Shown here one piece after another: positions 10,007 through 17,079 of a stretch of DNA of 64,000 nt (positions are counted from its first letter, which is position 1; the number at the start of each line of letters is the position of its first letter). The stretch covers positions 48,571-112,570 of the forward strand of contig CAZWEM010000007.1 of assembly GCA_964632315.1 (NCBI GenBank). The letters are read 5' to 3'. Source of the DNA: an uncultured archaeon. Its GTDB lineage: Archaea > Asgardarchaeota > Lokiarchaeia > Sigyniarchaeales > SOKP01. A program made the position numbers and the translations under genes. The notes under the pieces were generated by a model. That model was not told the DNA's origin and did not search any database. It was given only the letters and a program-made list of their open reading frames with translations.

Positions 10007-11377
10007 ATGAATAACATTAAAACTCCCCGAGATGAGAAAATTTCTTCGAAAAGAATTTTTGGATACGTTATAGGAACTGTACCGTTAATAATCTTAGCCG
10101 GTTTCTTTAGTCTGGTCTATGTGAATTTTTTCTATGACGATTTAAAACTCGATGAGGGGTTATGGATAATCGGTCTTATTATATATATGGTGGTAAATGC
10201 CTTAAATGACCCAATCGTTGGTTATTATAGCGATAATATGGATGTTAAGCGATGGGGAAGTAGACGCATTTTCTTTATAAAATATTTTAGTCCATTTCTG
10301 ATTGTTAGCTTCATTTTCATCTGGTTTCCTTGGAGTTTGGATAATCAAATCGTCATATTCCTTCATTTTGTCATAACAGTATGTACTTATGAGACGTTAT
10401 TTACAATCGTAACCATGACTTGGTATGCTCTTTTACCTGATATGACTTCAAATATTGATTCAAGGAATAAAATTGGATTGATAAGTGGTATAATAGGCTT
10501 TTTTGCGTCCATTCCTATAATGATAGTTCCATATATTATGGATAATCGATTCTTACTCCAGATAAGTAGTATCTTTGTAGCAGGAATCAGCTTGGTTTGC
10601 TACGTATTTGTAGTAAAATTTTCAAAAGAGACTCCAGAATATCAGCACGACAAAAGCCCACCATTATTAAAAGCAGTTAAGCAAACTTTGAAGTCAAAAA
10701 GCTACATTTTATTTATGGGATATAATTTTGCTGCCATATTGCAAACTTCTGTAGGTTTATCCTATTTGTTCGTGTACTCATTGATTCTGGGATCTGAAGG
10801 GATATTATATTTCTTTTTAATTTATATATTAGTTGGATATTCTTCAAACATTATCTGTGTGAAATTACGCTTTAAATATGGCATGAAAAAGATTATGATG
10901 TCCTATATGTCATTACAAATAATCGGAGGGACCATATCGTTTTTAATGATCCTTAATCCTGCAACAGAATGGTTTATCTGGATTGGAATCCTATGGACTA
11001 GCTTCTTTGGTGGATCTGGTGTCTTTTCAACTTCACTACAAACCCTACCAATAGATGAAGACGAGTTAAAATACGGTTCACGACGAGAGGGTATGTTTTT
11101 TGGAGTGAATGCATTATTCACAATGCCCGCTTATAGTATTGGCCCAATCATTGCAACTTTCATCCTGGGCGTTCTCAACTATATAAGAGATGCTCCAGTC
11201 GAAGTTCAACCAGCTTCTGCTATCATTGGAATTAAGTTTCTTTTTTTTATGTTACCACAGATATTCACCGCAATAGCATTGCTTTTTATTGCATTTTACC
11301 CTGCGGCATATCTTGAAAGTAATGAGTTCCAAGATCAGCTTAGTTTACTTCATAATAAAAAAAAAGAATCATTTTAA
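10007..11377 (+). CDS. MFS transporter, GPH/MelB-like sugar:cation symporter family
   Basis: NALNDPIVGYYSD...WGSRR; IDEDELKYGSRREGMFFG. Confidence 0.9.
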   Translation: MNNIKTPRDEKISSKRIFGYVIGTVPLIILAGFFSLVYVNFFYDDLKLDEGLWIIGLIIYMVVNALNDPIVGYYSDNMDVKRWGSRRIFFIKYFSPFLIVSFIFIWFPWSLDNQIVIFLHFVITVCTYETLFTIVTMTWYALLPDMTSNIDSRNKIGLISGIIGFFASIPIMIVPYIMDNRFLLQISSIFVAGISLVCYVFVVKFSKETPEYQHDKSPPLLKAVKQTLKSKSYILFMGYNFAAILQTSVGLSYLFVYSLILGSEGILYFFLIYILVGYSSNIICVKLRFKYGMKKIMMSYMSLQIIGGTISFLMILNPATEWFIWIGILWTSFFGGSGVFSTSLQTLPIDEDELKYGSRREGMFFGVNALFTMPAYSIGPIIATFILGVLNYIRDAPVEVQPASAIIGIKFLFFMLPQIFTAIALLFIAFYPAAYLESNEFQDQLSLLHNKKKESF

Positions 11378-11449: not shown

Positions 11450-11605
11450 CCGTAAAAAGGTCGGTAAAACGAATAAAATGCATCTAATTATTTGATTCCC
11501 GAATATGATTCGATATATTTAAATAAAATAAATCCATATTCTATTATGTAAATCATTGTAAAATAAAGTTCATAGTTTAATTAAAAATAATCGAATTTTA
11601 TTCGA
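11450..11605. promoter_or_regulatory. Cluster of 15-bp palindromic sites (TCGAA-N5-TTCGA type) upstream of ORF 11610
   Basis: CCGTAAAAAGGTCGG 11450-11464 (weak), CCGAATATGATTCGA 11499-11513, TCGAATTTTATTCGA 11591-11605 (perfect arms). Confidence 0.6.
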
Positions 11606-11609
11606 ATAG

Positions 11610-11840
11610 GTGAAAATTTTGGTTAAATGTCCAAAGTGTGGAATGGAGTATAGTTTGGGTACAAGAATATATCATTCTTGTGAAGATTATGAAATCTGTC
11701 ATGGGGTAGTATTTGGGGATGATAGGGTTTGCAGACCTTGGAATTGCAACCCAATTGAAGATTATAACCCCCCCGAAATTAATTTAGAAGCGGATTCTAC
11801 CTATCGAGATGAAAATATGGTTTTAAGCATCAAACAATAA
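11610..11840 (+). CDS. Small CPxCG-type Cys/His-rich putative zinc-binding protein
   Basis: VKCPKCG...HSC...C...C...C; GTG start within AGGTGA; palindromic sites upstream. Confidence 0.6.
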   Translation: MKILVKCPKCGMEYSLGTRIYHSCEDYEICHGVVFGDDRVCRPWNCNPIEDYNPPEINLEADSTYRDENMVLSIKQ

Positions 11841-11866
11841 TCACATTTCCCTCTTTTTTATAAATC

Positions 11867-12292
11867 TTAGATATTCGAAAGTTTTACAGTTATGAAAAAG
11901 AAGTTTACGATGGAACTCATTATATCATAAAATTCTTTTATCTCCAAAGGTTTATTTATATAGCAGTTAGCATGTAAGTCATAAGCTTTAATTAAATCTT
12001 CCTCATTAGTTGAAATCGTTAATATTATTACTGGAATTCGTCTAAATTTTTCATGTTCTTTTATTTCCTTTAAAACTTCAAGCCCTGTCATTTTAGGTAA
12101 ATTAAGGTCTAAAAAGATGAGATCAGGACGAGATTTTTTTTCTAGGAAGTTTAATGCCTCAACTCCATTGTGAACTACGTGAATTTCGTTGACAATCTCA
12201 TTTCTATTTAGTGCTTCTTTTGTAAGACTAATGTCAGCCGGATTATCTTCCACTAACAATATTCTGAACTTCTTATTCTGTTGATCATTCAT
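11867..12292 (-). CDS. Single-domain response regulator, Rcp1-like
   Basis: ILLVEDNPAD, PDLIFLDLNLP (phospho-Asp), ANCYINKP; ATGA overlap with the kinase gene. Confidence 0.92.
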   Translation of the reverse strand: MNDQQNKKFRILLVEDNPADISLTKEALNRNEIVNEIHVVHNGVEALNFLEKKSRPDLIFLDLNLPKMTGLEVLKEIKEHEKFRRIPVIILTISTNEEDLIKAYDLHANCYINKPLEIKEFYDIMSSIVNFFFITVKLSNI

Positions 12293-13374
12293 GGATTACG
12301 CTCTCCTCGCTGAGGATTCTTAATTTTCTTAGTTTTAATTGTAAAATAAAAGGTAGAACCTTTTCCAAGTTCTGATTCCACCCATACTTCCCCACCATAT
12401 CTCTGAACGATTTTTTTACATATTGGTAGTCCTATCCCTGTTCCGGGATATTCTTCTTTTGTATGTAGTCGATAAAATATATTATATAGTCGATCGTGAT
12501 ATTTCGGATCTATTCCAATACCATTATCCTTAATTGAAAAAATCCAGTAATTGCTTAATCTTTTCACTCCTATGTGGATTTTTGGAGGGTCTACATTACG
12601 AAATTTAATCGCATTACTTAGAAAGTTTTGAAATAATTGTAAGAATTGTATACGATCGACTTTTAAAGTAGGTAGTGGATCATGAGTAATAACTGCTCCA
12701 CTTTCTTTTATTGCTTCTTGTAAATTAAAAATAACATCATTTAAAATGGGTTCAAGGTCATGCCATTCTATTGGATTTGCTTGGGTTGTGATTCTAGAAT
12801 AGCTTAATAAATCTTTTATGAGAACGTTCATCTTTTTCGCTCCATCTGTAATAAAGTATATATATTCTTTACCATCCTCATCTAATTTATCATGATACTT
12901 TTCCTCGAGAAGTTGAGAAAAACTAATGATCGCTCTTAGAGGTTCCTGTAGATCATGAGATGCCACATAAGCGAATTGTTGAAGATCTTCATTTGATCGC
13001 TTTAAATCTTTAATAATCTCATTTAATTCTAATTCTTTCTTTAAAATTTTCTCAGATAAAAATGCGATTACTACACCAACTATTAGGACTGAAATCTTGA
13101 TTGAAAAGCCGTTTATCGCATCTTCACCAAAAAAAGACACACCTTGAGAAATTTGGACAATCAACAAAAATAATATTAAAAAAATAGGAATAGTAAGCCC
13201 TTTTCTCTTCCACCACAAAGTAGCTAAAATGGTAGGAAAATAGAAAAAATTAACAATATAAAAATTGATTTTAAGTATTACTTCAAAGTAGATAACTAAT
13301 AAGCAAGAGATTACTATTAAAGCTATTATTATCCCAAATTTTATGCATTCCTTTCGATCATTTAAGCTTATCAT
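12289..13374 (-). CDS. Membrane sensor histidine kinase with about 4 TM and a Cph1-type HisKA/HATPase core
   Basis: H-box FAYVASHDLQEPLR, N-box NFLSNAIKF, DNGIGI, GTGIGL, GKGSTF. Confidence 0.93.
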   Translation of the reverse strand: MISLNDRKECIKFGIIIALIVISCLLVIYFEVILKINFYIVNFFYFPTILATLWWKRKGLTIPIFLILFLLIVQISQGVSFFGEDAINGFSIKISVLIVGVVIAFLSEKILKKELELNEIIKDLKRSNEDLQQFAYVASHDLQEPLRAIISFSQLLEEKYHDKLDEDGKEYIYFITDGAKKMNVLIKDLLSYSRITTQANPIEWHDLEPILNDVIFNLQEAIKESGAVITHDPLPTLKVDRIQFLQLFQNFLSNAIKFRNVDPPKIHIGVKRLSNYWIFSIKDNGIGIDPKYHDRLYNIFYRLHTKEEYPGTGIGLPICKKIVQRYGGEVWVESELGKGSTFYFTIKTKKIKNPQRGERNP

Positions 13375-13560
13375 TTATAATCAAGCAAGCTACACGTTCT
13401 AAAGCTCCCTATATATGAAAATGAATTTATCTATTTAAATATCGTAGTGATAAATCGTATAATTACAAATTTGATTCATTTTTTTTTTAATTTTCCGAAT
13501 GAAAAATAGGTGAATAACATATTTCATTGATTAACTTCCATCTTACCAATCAAATCATTG

Positions 13561-13575
13561 TTGAAAGAATTTCGA
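13561..13575. promoter_or_regulatory. Palindromic site TTGAA-AGAAT-TTCGA between the divergent kinase and REC-Lrp genes
   Basis: One mismatch to TCGAA-N5-TTCGA. Confidence 0.45.
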
Positions 13576-13678
13576 AAAAACTGATTGAATTGATCTCTTG
13601 ATGGACTAATTATATATAAAAATGAATATTATTCAGAATTACTATTATTAATATAAATAAAGGGAGAAGACTCTTACA

Positions 13679-14551
13679 ATGAAAATATTATTAATTGAAG
13701 ATAATGCAGCTGATATTAAACTTATAGAAGAGTTTTTAAAAAAATCCTCCACTTTTCAATACGAACTTCATTCATTTACGCGTCTTTCAGAAGGATTAGA
13801 TTATGTTAATAATAATGAAGTGGATGTTATCTTACTAGATCTGACCCTACCAGATAGTGATAAAGAATCCTCTCTTGATACGATCCTAGAATACACATCT
13901 AAATATCCTGTTATTATTTTAACTGGATTTGATGATAAAGAAATTGCCTTAAATTCTCTTAAAAAAGGAATTCAAGACTATTTAGTAAAGGGAGATTTAA
14001 CTGATACCATCTTAAATCGTTCGATTTTATATGGAATCGAACGCCACAAAATCAAGCCTGAAGGTGCAATCAAAAAAGAAATCGAATTACCTTTAGATAA
14101 AAAGGATAAATTAATTCTAAACATTTTACAAGATAATTACAAAATATCTTATAAAGAAATAAGTAGTAAAGTGCATCTAGCAGCGAGCACAATCCATAAT
14201 CGCGTACAAAATATGATTACTACGGGGATTATTAAAGAAATCGATACAATTGTGGATCCATATAAAGTCGGTTTTAATACCATTACCATTGTGAGTTTAT
14301 CTGTAGATCCCTTAAAAATAGATGAGATTGCCCAAAAACTAAAAATATATGATAACATTCAACTCATTGCCTCTAGTGGAGGAGAATATAACTTAATAAT
14401 AAAAATTATAGTGGAAAATGAGAAAACCCTCTGGAAATTTATTAATGAAAAAATTAAAACAATTTCGGGAATATCAACCCAAATAAATGTTTCAAGCTTA
14501 ATTGAAATTTTTAAAAACACATCAAGAGTAAAATTTAAAGTAGAAAAATAA
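13679..14551 (+). CDS. Response regulator: receiver domain fused to a full Lrp/AsnC regulator (HTH + RAM domain)
   Basis: REC ILLIEDN, VILLD, ILT, YLVK; then LDKKDKLILNILQDNYKISYKEISSKVHLAASTIHNRVQNM...GIIK...VDPYKVGF...SGGEYNLII. Confidence 0.9.
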   Translation: MKILLIEDNAADIKLIEEFLKKSSTFQYELHSFTRLSEGLDYVNNNEVDVILLDLTLPDSDKESSLDTILEYTSKYPVIILTGFDDKEIALNSLKKGIQDYLVKGDLTDTILNRSILYGIERHKIKPEGAIKKEIELPLDKKDKLILNILQDNYKISYKEISSKVHLAASTIHNRVQNMITTGIIKEIDTIVDPYKVGFNTITIVSLSVDPLKIDEIAQKLKIYDNIQLIASSGGEYNLIIKIIVENEKTLWKFINEKIKTISGISTQINVSSLIEIFKNTSRVKFKVEK

Positions 14552-14556
14552 AAGAT

Positions 14557-15888
14557 TTAAGGAAAAATTCCTCTTAATTCAATAGCTCTTGCTAATCTTG
14601 AAACGGCTATTATATATGCAGCAGTTCTTAAAGTTGTATTTTTCTTCAAAGAGAGATCATAAACTTCCGAAAATGTGTTAACCATAATACCTTCTAATTC
14701 TTGGTTTATTCGATCAAGTTTCCAAAAGTAGCTATGAATATCTTGGATATACTCAAAATAACTTACGCAAACTCCCCCAGCATTTGCTAAAATATCAGGT
14801 ACAACAATTATCCCCCTCTCTCTTAATATTTCATCAGCTTCTGGTGTCGTTGGACCGTTTGCTCCTTCTAAAATTATTCCACAATTAATATTGTCAGCGT
14901 TATCGAGGGTTATCTGATTTTCTATTGCAGCTGGGATTAAGACATCACAATCAATATTTAGTAATTTGTCGTTAGGAATAAATTCGTAGTTTTCTTCCCT
15001 ATAGTCTTTTAAAAAGTGATTTTGATCGACCCATTCTGATAATTTTTTGATATCTAAGCCTTTATTATCATATAATCCCCCACTAATATCTGAAATCGCA
15101 ATAATCTTTGCTCCTTTTTCATATAGTATCCTAGCTATTGTTCCTCCAACGTTTCCAAAACCTTGGACTACGATGCTACTACCTTTGAGAGCTAAATTCA
15201 TTTTTTTATATAATGCATCTAATACATAATATAATCCCATTCCCGTTGCACTTTCTCTTCCCACTGATCCTCCTATTTCTATAGGTTTTCCGGTAACCAC
15301 TCCTGGAACAGAACGCCCTTTCTGCATTGAATACACATCCATAATCCATGCCATTATCCTTTTATCAGTTCCCACATCTGGAGCAGGAATATCAATATCA
15401 GGACCAATAATATTAATGATTTCAGCTGTGTATCTTCTTGTCAGTCTTTCAAGCTCTCCTAATGAAAGTTTTCTTGGATCAACACATACTCCTCCTTTAG
15501 CACCCCCTAAAGGGAGGTTTAATAAGCTGTTTTTCCAAGTCATCCATGTTGCAAGTGCCTTTACTTCATCTAAACACACGTTGGGAGAAAACCGAATGCC
15601 TCCCTTTCCTGGACCCCTGACGGTAGAATGCTGGGCTCTATATCCCTCAAATACTTCAAGTTCTCCATTATCCATAACTACAGGAATTGAAACAATCAGA
15701 GAGCGCTCTACTCTTTTTAGATATTTGGTAATATTTTTGTCTAGTCTCATCTCTTTAGCGACAATGTCGATTTGTTGTTTCGCCATCTCAAAGGGATTTC
15801 GAATTACTTTCTGAGGCCTTTTATATTCTTCTGATGGTTCGATCTCATTTGATACTACTATTGCTTTTTTATAAATAATTCTCCCCAC
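14557..15888 (-). CDS. gdhA: Glu/Leu/Phe/Val dehydrogenase, probably glutamate dehydrogenase
   Basis: GPGKGGIRF, GGAKGG, DIPAPDVGT, GFGNVG, NAGGVCVSYFE. Confidence 0.93.
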   Translation of the reverse strand: MGRIIYKKAIVVSNEIEPSEEYKRPQKVIRNPFEMAKQQIDIVAKEMRLDKNITKYLKRVERSLIVSIPVVMDNGELEVFEGYRAQHSTVRGPGKGGIRFSPNVCLDEVKALATWMTWKNSLLNLPLGGAKGGVCVDPRKLSLGELERLTRRYTAEIINIIGPDIDIPAPDVGTDKRIMAWIMDVYSMQKGRSVPGVVTGKPIEIGGSVGRESATGMGLYYVLDALYKKMNLALKGSSIVVQGFGNVGGTIARILYEKGAKIIAISDISGGLYDNKGLDIKKLSEWVDQNHFLKDYREENYEFIPNDKLLNIDCDVLIPAAIENQITLDNADNINCGIILEGANGPTTPEADEILRERGIIVVPDILANAGGVCVSYFEYIQDIHSYFWKLDRINQELEGIMVNTFSEVYDLSLKKNTTLRTAAYIIAVSRLARAIELRGIFP

Positions 15889-15991
15889 TTGTTTATTATA
15901 AACGAATAAAGTTCATTCTTAATTTTTTTTGTAAGATTGGTAAAAACGATTAAATACATGTTAATTATGGGGTTTATTGGTTATAAATCTA

Positions 15992-16036
15992 TCGAACAAG
16001 ATACGGGAAATCTATGGGATCTCGAATGATGTTCGA
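15992..16036. promoter_or_regulatory. Two palindromic sites, 30 bp apart, between gdhA and the ORF16123/TauE unit
   Basis: TCGAACAAGATACGG 15992-16006 and TCGAATGATGTTCGA 16022-16036. Confidence 0.6.
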
Positions 16037-16122
16037 TTTATCTCGAAAAGGAATACAAAACTTTAAATAATGGTGAGTCATTACATTTAATTAAATCTAA
16101 TTATTTGTAATTATATCCTAAA

Positions 16123-16278
16123 ATGACTACTGAATGCAACATTGGAAAAGAAGCAAAAGAAATTGATCGCCTCCCCATTAAAGAAAAGATGAAAATATCA
16201 AAGAACACGTTACATAAATTTCTTGGGGCAATTGGGATATACTTTTTAGTAATGACATTATTTTTTTTTACATTATAG
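16123..16278 (+). CDS. Unannotated 51 aa small membrane protein
   Basis: MTTECNIGKEAKEIDRLPIKEKMKISKNTLHKFLGAIGIYFLVMTLFFFTL*; stops 12 nt before the TauE start. Confidence 0.5.
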   Translation: MTTECNIGKEAKEIDRLPIKEKMKISKNTLHKFLGAIGIYFLVMTLFFFTL

Positions 16279-16290
16279 GGTAAATCACCT

Positions 16291-17079
16291 ATGGAATTAT
16301 TGATTCATATAATTCTCATTGCATTTATATTTGAGTCTATGGACTCAATGGCCGGAATGGGTTTTGGAACCGCCTTGACTCCTTTGTTATTAGCTCTTGG
16401 TTATGTCCCGCTTCAGATTGTTCCCACGATCTTAATATCAGAAGCTATAACTGGATTAATTGATAGTTTTTTTGATCATGAATTTGGGAACGTACGCTAT
16501 TCATTCATCCCTCTCAATCAAGCAACGAAAGTGTCATTGATAATGGCATTTTTTGGTTGTTGTGCAATTTTTACATCAATTTTTATTGGTTATTTTGCTA
16601 TCAAATTTCCCCTAAATATTATTAAAATCTATGTAGCAGTTTTGGTTGTTTTTATGGGTTTGTCTGGTTTCATCAAGTTAAAATTAAGTAAGATAGAGAA
16701 TATTGGGTATAAACCAAAACTAATTTATGGATTTTCTGCTTTAGCTGGTTTTAATAAGGGGATTGGAGGAGGAGGGTATGGACCAGTATTAACAATGGGA
16801 CAGATTTTTTCAGGTATATATGAAAAAAGCGCTACTGCTTTAGTTTCTTTTTCGGAATCTATTGTTTCAATAGTTGGGATTTTTACATTCTTTGGGATAA
16901 GTTACGCTGGAATAAATATCGATCTGGTATTGTTACCTTCACTCTTTACGGGAGGATTTTTTGCTGCACTGATTTCACCTTATCTAGTAAGAATCCTTCC
17001 GAATAAATTATGGAAATATCTAATACCTATCTACGCTTTTGGAATAGGTTTATACACATTATTCGAAATTTTTATGTAA
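16291..17079 (+). CDS. TauE/SafE (TSUP) sulfite-exporter family membrane protein
   Basis: DSMAGMGFGTALTP and GFNKGIGGGGYGP repeats; about 8 TM. Confidence 0.85.
   Translation: MELLIHIILIAFIFESMDSMAGMGFGTALTPLLLALGYVPLQIVPTILISEAITGLIDSFFDHEFGNVRYSFIPLNQATKVSLIMAFFGCCAIFTSIFIGYFAIKFPLNIIKIYVAVLVVFMGLSGFIKLKLSKIENIGYKPKLIYGFSALAGFNKGIGGGGYGPVLTMGQIFSGIYEKSATALVSFSESIVSIVGIFTFFGISYAGINIDLVLLPSLFTGGFFAALISPYLVRILPNKLWKYLIPIYAFGIGLYTLFEIFM

Follow-up and report, generated by a model that had tools for sequence, protein, structure and literature searches.

Phased copies of a 13-bp palindromic box mark the promoters of three neighbouring genes in the archaeal DNA studied here, a window of 64,000 nucleotides (the whole stretch that was analysed). 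These boxes are probably the operator arrays of a response regulator with an Lrp-type output module (REC-Lrp, encoded at 13679..14551 on the + strand) which, to judge from the sequence, would repress its own gene and control both a glutamate dehydrogenase gene (gdhA) and a gene for a CPxCG microprotein; REC-Lrp is the most likely protein to bind them. The locus would then hold a small gene circuit, made up of a kinase-controlled Lrp and its neighbours, that is directly testable.

The initial annotation had described the motif as a 15-bp palindrome, TCGAA-N5-TTCGA. The actual unit is the 13-bp box YGAAY-NNN-RTTCR, with the core GAA-N5-TTC and, in its best copies, an A/T-rich centre. The boxes in the window have the form abcdeWWWe'd'c'b'a' described for Lrp/FFRP proteins, a 13-bp dyad whose 5-bp arms flank three A/T base pairs (PMC2715240), and the CGAA-N5-TTCG core is that of the SELEX optimum published there for FL11, so the earlier assignment of the motif to this type stands. 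Centres composed of A and T alone are found in CGAAT-TTT-ATTCG, TGAAT-ATT-ATTCA and TGAAC-TTT-ATTCG. A single G or C occurs in the centres of CGAAT-ATG-ATTCG, CGAAT-GAT-GTTCG, TGAAA-GAA-TTTCG and CGTAT-CTT-GTTCG, several of the window's boxes being degenerate (the boxes at 16023 and 11500 have a G there). In published Lrp operators several imperfect sites are clustered on a shared face of the helix and follow one another at two or three helical turns (PMC2995911); the boxes in the window form such clusters, at spacings of 30, 92, 61, 90 and 30 bp, and one of them (13623-13635) lies in the control region of the REC-Lrp gene itself.

Pattern searches recovered the exact 15-bp copies at 11591-11605 and 16022-16036, both also read directly, and the one-mismatch copies at 11499-11513 (CCGAATATGATTCGA) and 13561-13575 (TTGAAAGAATTTCGA). 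The weaker copy at 15992-16006 (TCGAACAAGATACGG) was borne out with two mismatches in 10 arm positions, and the 30-bp distance claimed for the gdhA-side pair is correct, centre to centre. The copy placed at 11450-11464 (CCGTAAAAAGGTCGG) did not survive, because it has four mismatches, is out of phase with the other boxes and lacks the GAA-N5-TTC core. Within the window, two exact matches were observed against 0.04 expected and nine matches with at most one mismatch against 2.64, numbers reached in 0 of 100 shuffles in either case. Five of those nine lie outside the spacers of the locus (929, 5377, 15788, which is inside gdhA, 43625 and 57894); the first two are intergenic on a crude ORF map, so the statement that the motif is absent from other spacers is not strictly true. 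Genome-wide, the exact 15-mer is not enriched: it occurs 10 times in 4.45 Mb, seven of these in coding DNA, with no excess over other spacings (3-11 copies for N0 to N20), which indicates that the circuit is local. What exceeds chance instead is clustering and conservation. Across 16 orthologous loci, the reported motif (at most one mismatch) is concentrated in the three promoter regions, with 20 matches in 10.8 kb as compared to three in the remaining 143.5 kb.

The 13-mer box is present in all 20 REC-Lrp-linked gdhA promoters of the genus and in none of 10 promoters of the best GDH paralogs from genomes without the linked gene; it was also found in 16 of 17 REC-Lrp promoters and, as the core, in 12 of 14 CPxCG promoters, counts that come from related genomes and thus overstate independence. 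The claim that the CPxCG and gdhA promoters are box-marked therefore holds in nearly all cassette-carrying genomes. When palindromic 4-mer dyads are counted without bias, CGAA-N5-TTCG comes first upstream of gdhA (12/16), while upstream of REC-Lrp GAAT-N3-ATTC is second (14/17) and TGAA-N5-TTCA third (13/17), tied with dyads made only of A and T. Centre-to-centre distances over 17 loci are quantised at 30-31, 61-62, 90-92 and 120-121 bp. For gdhA (n = 33), 13 fall at 30-31, nine at 90-92, five at 120-121, two at 88, two at 102 and two elsewhere; for CPxCG (n = 19), two are at 30, three at 61, 12 at 90-92 and two at 121; and four of the seven distances in the REC-Lrp promoter are 61-62 bp. The 30/90 plan is common to two different promoters, and those of gdhA and CPxCG may descend from one duplicated cassette. 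It is hardly credible that the repeats are relics of a common promoter ancestor, or arose by chance in AT-rich DNA, and have no regulatory role. Such an origin would accord with the lack of genome-wide enrichment of the exact 15-mer, with the relatedness of the orthologs and with the likeness of the two target promoters, but conservation is 80% or higher in the box columns whereas the flanking spacer columns are mostly unconserved, spacing is held within 1-2 bp and no boxes accompany the unlinked GDH paralogs.

Searches blind to the locus point the same way. In the window genome, the 13-mer with an A/T-only centre has eight intergenic copies, three of them in the cassette locus, and paired 13-mers occur at two places only, the promoters of gdhA and of CPxCG. 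We also ran a composite pattern (box, 4 nt, WTTTA, 66-72 nt, box) against 42 genomes of the genus, with the reversed pattern as control. It matched 33 places in 19 of the 42 genomes as compared to none for the control, which is a further point against chance; 28 of the 33 were assigned to cassette contigs, two of these inside the CPxCG coding region. The cassette was matched in 18 of 20 genomes that carry it, and any place at all in only one of the 22 others. A dimeric regulator of some other family could in principle recognise such palindromes, the likeness to feast/famine operators being coincidental, and binding by REC-Lrp is after all our inference. Intergenic DNA is enriched for a 14-bp relative of the box, TGAAT-N4-ATTCA (29 intergenic copies genome-wide, as compared to 7-15 for other spacings), which shows a similar half-site to be in use by some other factor of this genome. 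We nevertheless regard a regulator of another family as improbable: a dyad centred on N3 with A/T in the centre (ATT, in the best box, is the SELEX optimum in the FL11 work cited above), 30-bp phasing and a site in an Lrp gene's own promoter all match Lrp behaviour, and the boxes are in synteny with no further DNA-binding gene.

At gdhA (14557..15888, - strand, assigned by Pfam), the spacer is best conserved at a box in the leader, TGAAC-TTT-ATTCG on the gdhA strand (15903..15915), which is present in 20 of the 20 linked promoters shown. The initial annotation was right that this promoter is marked but overlooked its best-conserved box. The putative TATA box, ATTTATAA (15981..15988, - strand), is part of a TTCG-N4-ATTTATAA arrangement conserved in orthologs. 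The TATA-adjacent box, CGTAT-CTT-GTTCG on the gdhA strand (15993..16005, the weak 15992 site), ends 4 nt upstream of it and 90 bp from the leader box; one arm lacks the GAA core in the window, while orthologs have nnGAA-N5-TTCG at this position. A distal box, CGAAT-GAT-GTTCG (16023..16035, the 16022 site), stands 30 bp further upstream, and its counterparts in orthologs lie at 30-31 bp.

The CPxCG promoter has the same plan. Its putative TATA box, ATTTAAATA (11517..11525, + strand), is conserved in orthologs; in the window genome the density of ATTTAAATA in intergenic DNA is about 5.6 times that in coding DNA, and TTTAAATA is most frequent 40-80 nt ahead of ORF starts. The box CGAAT-ATG-ATTCG (11500..11512, the 11499 site) ends 4 nt before this element, and orthologs have a box at the equivalent place ahead of a TTTAAATA-type element. 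Sequence and spacing identify a half box, CGAAT-AAA-ATGCA (11470..11482), whose centre precedes that of the next box by 30 bp; a close relative has the same CGAATAAAAT half box 31 bp upstream of its TATA-adjacent box. It is this phased half box that takes the place of the discarded 11450 copy. Downstream of the TATA-adjacent box by 92 bp, CGAAT-TTT-ATTCG (11592..11604, the 11591 site) ends 4 nt before a GGTGA Shine-Dalgarno sequence (11609-11613), and the 12 CPxCG upstream regions that keep its core hold it 90-92 bp from the upstream box. If the upstream TATA boxes serve as the promoters, the start-proximal boxes (11592-11604 and 15903-15915) would be transcribed, 4-20 nt before Shine-Dalgarno-like motifs, and the palindrome can form a 5-bp stem, so they might act as leader RNA hairpins, for example by masking the ribosome-binding site, instead of as DNA operators. 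Five base pairs closed by a 3-nt loop make a weak hairpin. Such a role is very unlikely, since the word is also found ahead of the TATA boxes and, in the case of REC-Lrp, immediately behind the TATA-like element, and some proximal boxes would mispair (TGAAC...ATTCG gives a C-A pair); GAA and TTC themselves are uninformative on pairing because they are invariant by definition of the core.

In the REC-Lrp promoter the most conserved block of the aligned spacer is a perfect palindrome, TGAAT-ATT-ATTCA (13623..13635), 44 nt before the ATG. A box was found at this place as TGAATATTATTCA in 11 loci, CGAATATTATTCA in three and TGAAAATTATTCA in two. Directly upstream lies a conserved A/T block, TAATTATATATAAAAA (13607..13622, + strand), which is probably the TATA-like element. 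The 13561 site is an auxiliary box, TGAAA-GAA-TTTCG (13562..13574), 61 bp upstream; a GAA-N5-TTC core at 61-62 bp is present in four of 17 loci (the window, L032, L036 and L037). The promoter is therefore marked as had been proposed, but chiefly by a box absent from the earlier description. Two parts of the proposed regulon are unsupported. Ahead of the divergent histidine kinase gene there is no box near the conserved ATTTAAATA. The pair formed by orf51 and a TauE-family gene (16123..17079, + strand; Pfam TauE), divergent from gdhA, has TTTAAATA nearby at 16062-16069, but no conserved box-to-TATA arrangement is seen in the two loci where the pair is separated from gdhA (L039 and L042), core copies there lying solely far upstream of a TATA-like element.

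REC-Lrp combines a receiver with an AsnC-type HTH followed by a RAM domain, the domain order of the Lrp/AsnC family (Pfam HTH_24, 2.8e-13; HTH_AsnC-type, 1.1e-11; AsnC_trans_reg, 1.3e-07; each above the cut-off). In the receiver (Response_reg, 1.4e-15) we read E7, D8, D54, T82 and K104, taking E7/D8 to be the acidic pair, D54 the phospho-acceptor and T82 and K104 to have their receiver roles. Its partner is likely the divergent membrane histidine kinase (12289..13374, - strand; HisKA and HATPase_c in Pfam), which is syntenic in every locus that extends that far; a stand-alone receiver protein (11867..12292, - strand; Response_reg, 7.1e-26) is also syntenic in orthologous loci. The closest solved relatives are PH0140, FL11 (PH1519) and LrpA. 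The reading head is LAASTIHNRV in 16 of 17 orthologs and LAASTVHNRV, an I-to-V change, in the remaining one, and its likeness to FL11 supports the earlier choice of this protein as the candidate regulator. FL11 contacts bases through L24, A34, E35, S36, T37 and H39 (PMC2715240), which align to Y, A, A, S, T and H here, four of six being identical (A34, S36, T37 and H39). The half-site YGAA equals the (C/T)GAA of FL11, bases a, b and c retaining their contacts, and the best box shares its ATT centre with the FL11 SELEX optimum, CCGAAA[AAT/ATT]TTTCGG (natural consensus TGAAAWWWTTTCA; PMC2715240). In contrast, base e is T or C here and A for FL11, and residues 24 and 35 are Tyr/Phe and Ala as opposed to Leu and Glu, so that REC-Lrp departs from the full FL11 set of six residues with the half-site (C/T)GAAA. 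With two of six contact residues and base e differing, the argument is one of analogy, and the specificity of REC-Lrp would be related to that of FL11, not identical.

Could the operators be genuine but read by another Lrp paralog? The window genome has 11 further Lrp-like matches, none with AASTIH, among them a stand-alone protein (C5:18588) with the head PASTIH and Leu at position 24 that is close to FL11. In four relatives (L039, L040, L042 and L044), moreover, an Lrp without a receiver but with the identical LAASTIHNRV adjoins CPxCG. We consider this unlikely, though the least so of the alternatives: the composite pattern follows the REC-Lrp cassette, the best-conserved box is in REC-Lrp's own promoter, the window genome has no receiver-less copy beside CPxCG, and the promoter of C5:18588 lacks such a box.

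With REC-Lrp as the probable reader, known systems suggest how the arrays might work. FL11 (Pyrococcus sp. OT3/P. horikoshii; PDB 2E1C with DNA) uses a 13-bp box of the same form at multiple sites, in the promoters of its own gene and of its targets, and its octamer covers long DNA (PMC2715240; PMC2995911), and its Lrp module is a distant relative (E = 4.8e-20). Unlike REC-Lrp, it has no receiver or neighbouring kinase; it targets lysine biosynthesis as opposed to gdhA and a zinc-ribbon gene, and its host differs from the mesophile-type Asgard genome here (33% GC). LrpA of Pyrococcus furiosus (PDB 1I1G), also without a receiver, is an autorepressor: bound at the downstream border of the TATA box of its own gene, it prevents the recruitment of RNA polymerase (PMC2995911). 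The own-promoter box occupies the same position relative to the putative TATA-like element, from which we infer negative autoregulation. The boxes 4 nt before the gdhA and CPxCG TATA boxes would adjoin or overlap the BRE. Ptr2 (Methanocaldococcus jannaschii), LysM and Ss-LrpB (Sulfolobus) act as activators from this position, binding a few bp from the BRE with phased sites upstream (PMC2995911). These proteins have no receiver, the box of Ss-LrpB (TTGCAA[AAT/ATT]TTGCAA) is unlike those here, and the strongly conserved leader box 90 bp downstream sets our promoters apart. Ss-LrpB, which wraps DNA over about 100 bp, can change between the roles of activator and repressor (PMC2995911).

Placed on one helix face at multiples of about 30.3 bp, the boxes could be bound cooperatively by a multimer of REC-Lrp dimers that would bend or wrap 90-150 bp of promoter. 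At gdhA and CPxCG, occupation of only the upstream boxes (the TATA-adjacent one and one or two more 30 and 60 bp upstream) might help TBP/TFB, while bridging to the near-consensus box just ahead of the Shine-Dalgarno sequence, at +50 from the presumed transcription start, could wrap and shut the core promoter. Since activator-type and repressor-type positions are both present, the architecture does not fix the sign of regulation; phosphorylation of D54, possibly with a RAM-domain ligand, may set the oligomeric state and hence the outcome. We tentatively propose, as a possibility that falls short of our favoured reading, a phosphorylation-gated feast/famine regulator in which the kinase sets, via the receiver, the number of Lrp dimers on the array, and so whether gdhA is open and BRE-assisted or wrapped and closed. 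If so, the locus would hold a complete Asgard sensor-to-promoter circuit that is readable from sequence alone, and two-component signalling would be coupled to nucleosome-like DNA wrapping, a link that the papers cited here do not describe. The archaeal response regulators Bat-like, LtrR and FilR1 likewise join a receiver to an HTH output beside a histidine kinase (PMC5847659), but REC-Lrp has a full Lrp/AsnC module as its output. In its main text that census mentions Lrp/AsnC for the NitrOD1 domain alone; the REC-Lrp architecture may be listed in the supplementary tables.

The CPxCG zinc-ribbon-like microprotein (11619..11840, + strand) probably starts at the TTG at 11619, where the aligned orthologs begin M-V/I-K-C-P, and has a weak zinc-finger match alone in Pfam. 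The linked glutamate dehydrogenase carries about 30 N-terminal residues beyond the other GDH copies, and among the four GDH matches in the window genome it is the one paralog whose alignment begins at residue 1.

We consider it probable that a set of short palindromic boxes at this locus forms operator arrays for REC-Lrp (13679-14551, +), a regulator comprising a receiver domain, an AsnC-type HTH and a RAM domain, which would repress its own gene and control gdhA and CPxCG. On its left lie an MFS transporter (10007-11377, +), the 76-aa Cys-rich protein CPxCG (11610-11840, +), a REC-only protein (11867-12292, -) and HK, a HisKA/HATPase histidine kinase (12289-13374, -); on its right lie the glutamate dehydrogenase gene gdhA (14557-15888, -), a 51-aa ORF termed orf51 (16123-16278, +) and TauE (16291-17079, +). 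The map is from Pfam. By their public names, close homologues put the organism within the Asgard archaea (Promethearchaeota/Lokiarchaeota). REC-Lrp recurs in 16 further genomes of the same genus at 57-68% identity to the window copy, uninterrupted in 15 of them and in two pieces in G007, and the order gdhA, REC-Lrp, HK, REC-only, CPxCG is common to those 16; the cassette was also found in three genomes beyond them.

The initial annotation had proposed a 15-bp palindrome, TCGAA-N5-TTCGA, as the shared mark of these promoters. Pattern searching and sequence reading recover the exact copies as described (11591-11605 and 16022-16036), together with the one-mismatch copies at 11499-11513 and 13561-13575 and the weaker copy at 15992-16006, which has two mismatches. 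A further copy proposed at 11450 has four mismatches, no GAA-N5-TTC core and the wrong phase, and was rejected. The two exact copies in the window compare with 0.04 expected and the nine matches with at most one mismatch compare with 2.64 expected, counts that none of 100 shuffles reached in either case; five of the nine fall outside the spacers of the locus. Across the 4.45-Mb genome that holds the window (33% GC), the exact 15-mer is not enriched, with 10 copies against 3-11 for other spacings from N0 to N20. Because this count lies inside that range and 7 of the 10 copies are in coding DNA, the 15-mer is no signal at genome scale. It stands out by its local clustering and, above all, by its conservation. 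Conservation in orthologous promoters, a check suggested in the initial annotation, is borne out: at 16 orthologous loci, the window excluded, the three promoter regions (10.8 kb) contain 20 matches with at most one mismatch and the remaining 143.5 kb contain 3, a comparison to which no P value is attached because relatedness would inflate any. The sole other intergenic exact copy in the genome (TCGAAATTAATTCGA, C29:40022-40036) lies 115 bp upstream of an apparent HTH regulator (C29:39362-39907), of which it is possibly an autoregulatory box; another exact copy is at C29:41361.

In an unbiased count of palindromic 4-mer dyads, CGAA-N5-TTCG ranks first in gdhA upstream regions (12/16), and GAAT-N3-ATTC (14/17) and TGAA-N5-TTCA (13/17) rank second and third in REC-Lrp upstream regions, tied there with A/T-only dyads. 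The shared core is GAA-N5-TTC and the predicted complete recognition unit is the 13-mer YGAAY-NNN-RTTCR. In the window, the CPxCG promoter has a half box at 11470-11482 followed by CGAAT-ATG-ATTCG (11500-11512) and CGAAT-TTT-ATTCG (11592-11604). The REC-Lrp promoter has TGAAA-GAA-TTTCG (13562-13574) and the perfect palindrome TGAAT-ATT-ATTCA (13623-13635), and the gdhA promoter has TGAAC-TTT-ATTCG, read on the gdhA strand (15903-15915), a TATA-adjacent box (15993-16005) and CGAAT-GAT-GTTCG (16023-16035). Several boxes are degenerate. Those at 13623-13635 and 15903-15915 had been overlooked in the initial annotation; in alignments that were anchored on these same boxes, nothing else in either spacer is as well conserved.

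Conservation of the boxes follows the cassette closely, although box counts across relatives are non-independent samples. That the gdhA promoter is marked, as had been claimed, is borne out in all 20 linked gdhA promoters, each with the 13-mer and two to four cores. Of the 14 CPxCG upstream regions, 12 have core boxes; that of L031 is truncated at a contig end, and that of L034 has half boxes. The own-promoter box of REC-Lrp is found at 16 of 17 loci, the exception being L046 of G007. There (L046:5627-6627) the REC-Lrp match is broken into residues 1-208 and 192-281 and the own-promoter box is degenerate, while the gdhA and CPxCG boxes are kept; the split may reflect decay of the gene or a faulty assembly. 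Among the four GDH paralogs of the window's genome, the boxes are limited to the REC-Lrp-linked copy; two of the paralogs are divergent neighbours (C63:4228-6957) and another is at C33:38673-39911. The 13-mer is likewise absent from the promoters of the best GDH paralogs in 10 genomes without the linked gene, where each has at most one core nearby, apparently inside the preceding gene.

Searches blind to the locus also return to it. The target promoters have about 10 bare cores per kb, compared with 0.39 per kb of intergenic DNA in the window's genome. The 13-mer with an A/T-only centre has eight intergenic copies in that genome, three of them within this locus, and the CPxCG and gdhA promoters are the only two places where two 13-mers stand 90-120 bp apart. 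A strict paired 13-mer pattern proved over-stringent across the genus (4 of 42 genomes matched), and a composite pattern (box, 4 nt, WTTTA, 66-72 nt, box) was used instead, with the reversed pattern as control. The composite pattern matches 33 places in 19 of the 42 genomes and its reverse none; by contig and sequence, 28 of these places were assigned to the cassette, two of them within the CPxCG coding region, and five lie elsewhere. Of the 20 cassette-bearing genomes, 18 have a match in the cassette, the exceptions being G026 and G065; of the other 22, only one has a match anywhere. The REC-Lrp search covered 20 of these 22, with no full-length match, and G063 and G064 lay outside it. A wider regulon, for which the five other intergenic 13-mers with A/T-only centres were considered, is not claimed; judged by their translations, the neighbouring genes look unrelated, among them a likely Pus10, a methyltransferase/flavin-reductase-like pair, RadA and ribosomal protein L11.

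The gdhA and CPxCG promoters share a plan and may be duplicates of each other. Each begins with one or two distal boxes. The next box stops 4 nt ahead of ATTTATAA (gdhA) or ATTTAAATA (CPxCG), and about 90 bp downstream of that stands a near-consensus box, close before a Shine-Dalgarno-like G-rich motif. We take ATTTATAA and ATTTAAATA as putative TATA boxes because TTTAAATA peaks 40-80 nt ahead of ORF starts and ATTTAAATA is about 5.6-fold denser in intergenic DNA. In the REC-Lrp promoter, a box directly follows a TATA-like A/T block. Distances between boxes are quantised in multiples of about 30.3 bp, or about three helical turns. The 33 distances in gdhA promoters comprise 13 at 30-31, nine at 90-92, five at 120-121, two at 88, two at 102 and two others; the 19 in CPxCG promoters comprise two at 30, three at 61, 12 at 90-92 and two at 121; four of seven in REC-Lrp promoters are 61-62; and those in the window are 30, 92, 61, 90 and 30 bp. 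Most of the sequence between boxes is not conserved, and this favours a constraint on spacing itself. Two other proposed targets found no support: orf51-TauE is without a conserved box arrangement across loci, and no box is found near the conserved ATTTAAATA of HK. The element CACTAYGAT-ATTTAAATA (13432-13441), conserved ahead of the kinase in nearly all loci with no box nearby, is probably the HK promoter, and CCGAAT half-words recur farther upstream of it in several loci.

Several features point to REC-Lrp as the reader of these boxes. The closest solved relatives of its Lrp module are PH0140, FL11 and LrpA. As described in parts of Yokoyama et al. 2009 (PMC2715240), archaeal feast/famine (Lrp-type) proteins bind sites of the form abcdeWWWe'd'c'b'a', and Pyrococcus FL11 has the SELEX optimum CCGAAA[AAT/ATT]TTTCGG and the natural consensus TGAAAWWWTTTCA, reading bases through L24, A34, E35, S36, T37 and H39. 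At these six positions REC-Lrp aligns Y, A, A, S, T and H. The residues reading bases a, b and c are identical in the two proteins, and the half-site YGAA found here is that of FL11. Positions 24 and 35 are changed, both of which the same passages tie to bases d and e, and it is at base e that the sites diverge, with T/C here and A in FL11. The reading head LAASTIHNRV is found in 16 of 17 REC-Lrp orthologs, L043 having LAASTVHNRV. Phe replaces Tyr at position 24 in L031 and L034, the two orthologs whose own box is TGAAA-ATT-ATTCA, a hint that residue 24 and own box covary, but one that amounts to a single evolutionary event. None of 11 further Lrp-like matches in the window's genome carries AASTIH (C5:18588 carries PASTIH), and the paralog promoters on C5, C19 and C23 have no clear boxes to tell specificities apart. 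In four relatives, a REC-less Lrp with 52-56% identity to the Lrp module and an identical LAASTIHNRV head follows and overlaps CPxCG (L039:8844-9422, L040:8807-9385, L042:8866-9444 and L044:3480-4058), and is possibly a competitor or partner for the same boxes.

How such arrays might work is suggested by passages of the review by Peeters and Charlier (PMC2995911). There, Lrp proteins target groups of imperfect sites that follow one another at two or three helical turns; the activators Ptr2, LysM and Ss-LrpB place a dimer site a few bp upstream of the BRE; the repressor site of LrpA adjoins the TATA box on its downstream side; and Ss-LrpB wraps about 100 bp with a sign that switches with concentration. 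By analogy, the own-promoter box would be a negative autoregulatory site, and the gdhA and CPxCG arrays would be bound by a multimer that can either help the core promoter or wrap it. On sequence reading, the receiver domain carries E7, D8, D54, T82 and K104, which makes the divergent HK its likely input; the REC-only protein may be a competitor for phosphate. Both the direction of control and the influence of phosphorylation are our inference.

Boxes and phasing of this kind are already known for feast/famine proteins; what appears new is their predicted use by a receiver-fused Lrp in a two-component cassette confined to a single genus-level group of Asgard archaea. According to the archaeal two-component census (PMC5847659), DNA-binding response regulators are a rarity among archaea; its main text mentions Lrp/AsnC only for the NitrOD1 domain. 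The word 'receiver' is absent from the Lrp review (PMC2995911), and among the titles and abstracts examined none dealt with an Lrp module joined whole to a receiver, or with the operators of such a protein. The best 120 of 856 homologues (E <= 1e-10) are all REC + HTH + RAM and carry generic names only. The regulator, its likely kinase, the box sequence, the phasing and three target promoters can be read from sequence and are conserved in about 20 species, and such predictions are exact and addressable by recombinant protein without culturing the organism. If they are true, an Asgard archaeon couples an external or membrane signal to glutamate/2-oxoglutarate metabolism, and the published recognition code gains one residue-base pair (position 24/35 versus base e).

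Some further observations concern neighbouring features. The CPxCG start (region 11609-11621) is most likely TTG 11619, 5 nt past GGTGA, in preference to GTG 11610; CPxCG orthologs begin M-V/I-K-C-P at the position of this TTG. Linked gdhA has about 30 additional N-terminal codons (15790-15888, -), open in 20 of 20 orthologs. In several of these the aligned start is without ATG, GTG or TTG, and in the window GTG 15888 overlaps a Shine-Dalgarno-like GGGGAG; the true start codon may be non-canonical. Finally, the 14-bp palindrome TGAAT-N4-ATTCA, frequently in the form TGAATAATTATTCA, occurs between genes of the window's genome 29 times (C1:24101, C4:1183, C19:37573, C23:45519, C35:23304 and 24 more), versus 7-15 times for its arms at other spacings; it probably serves another factor, more global in reach, with a similar half-site.
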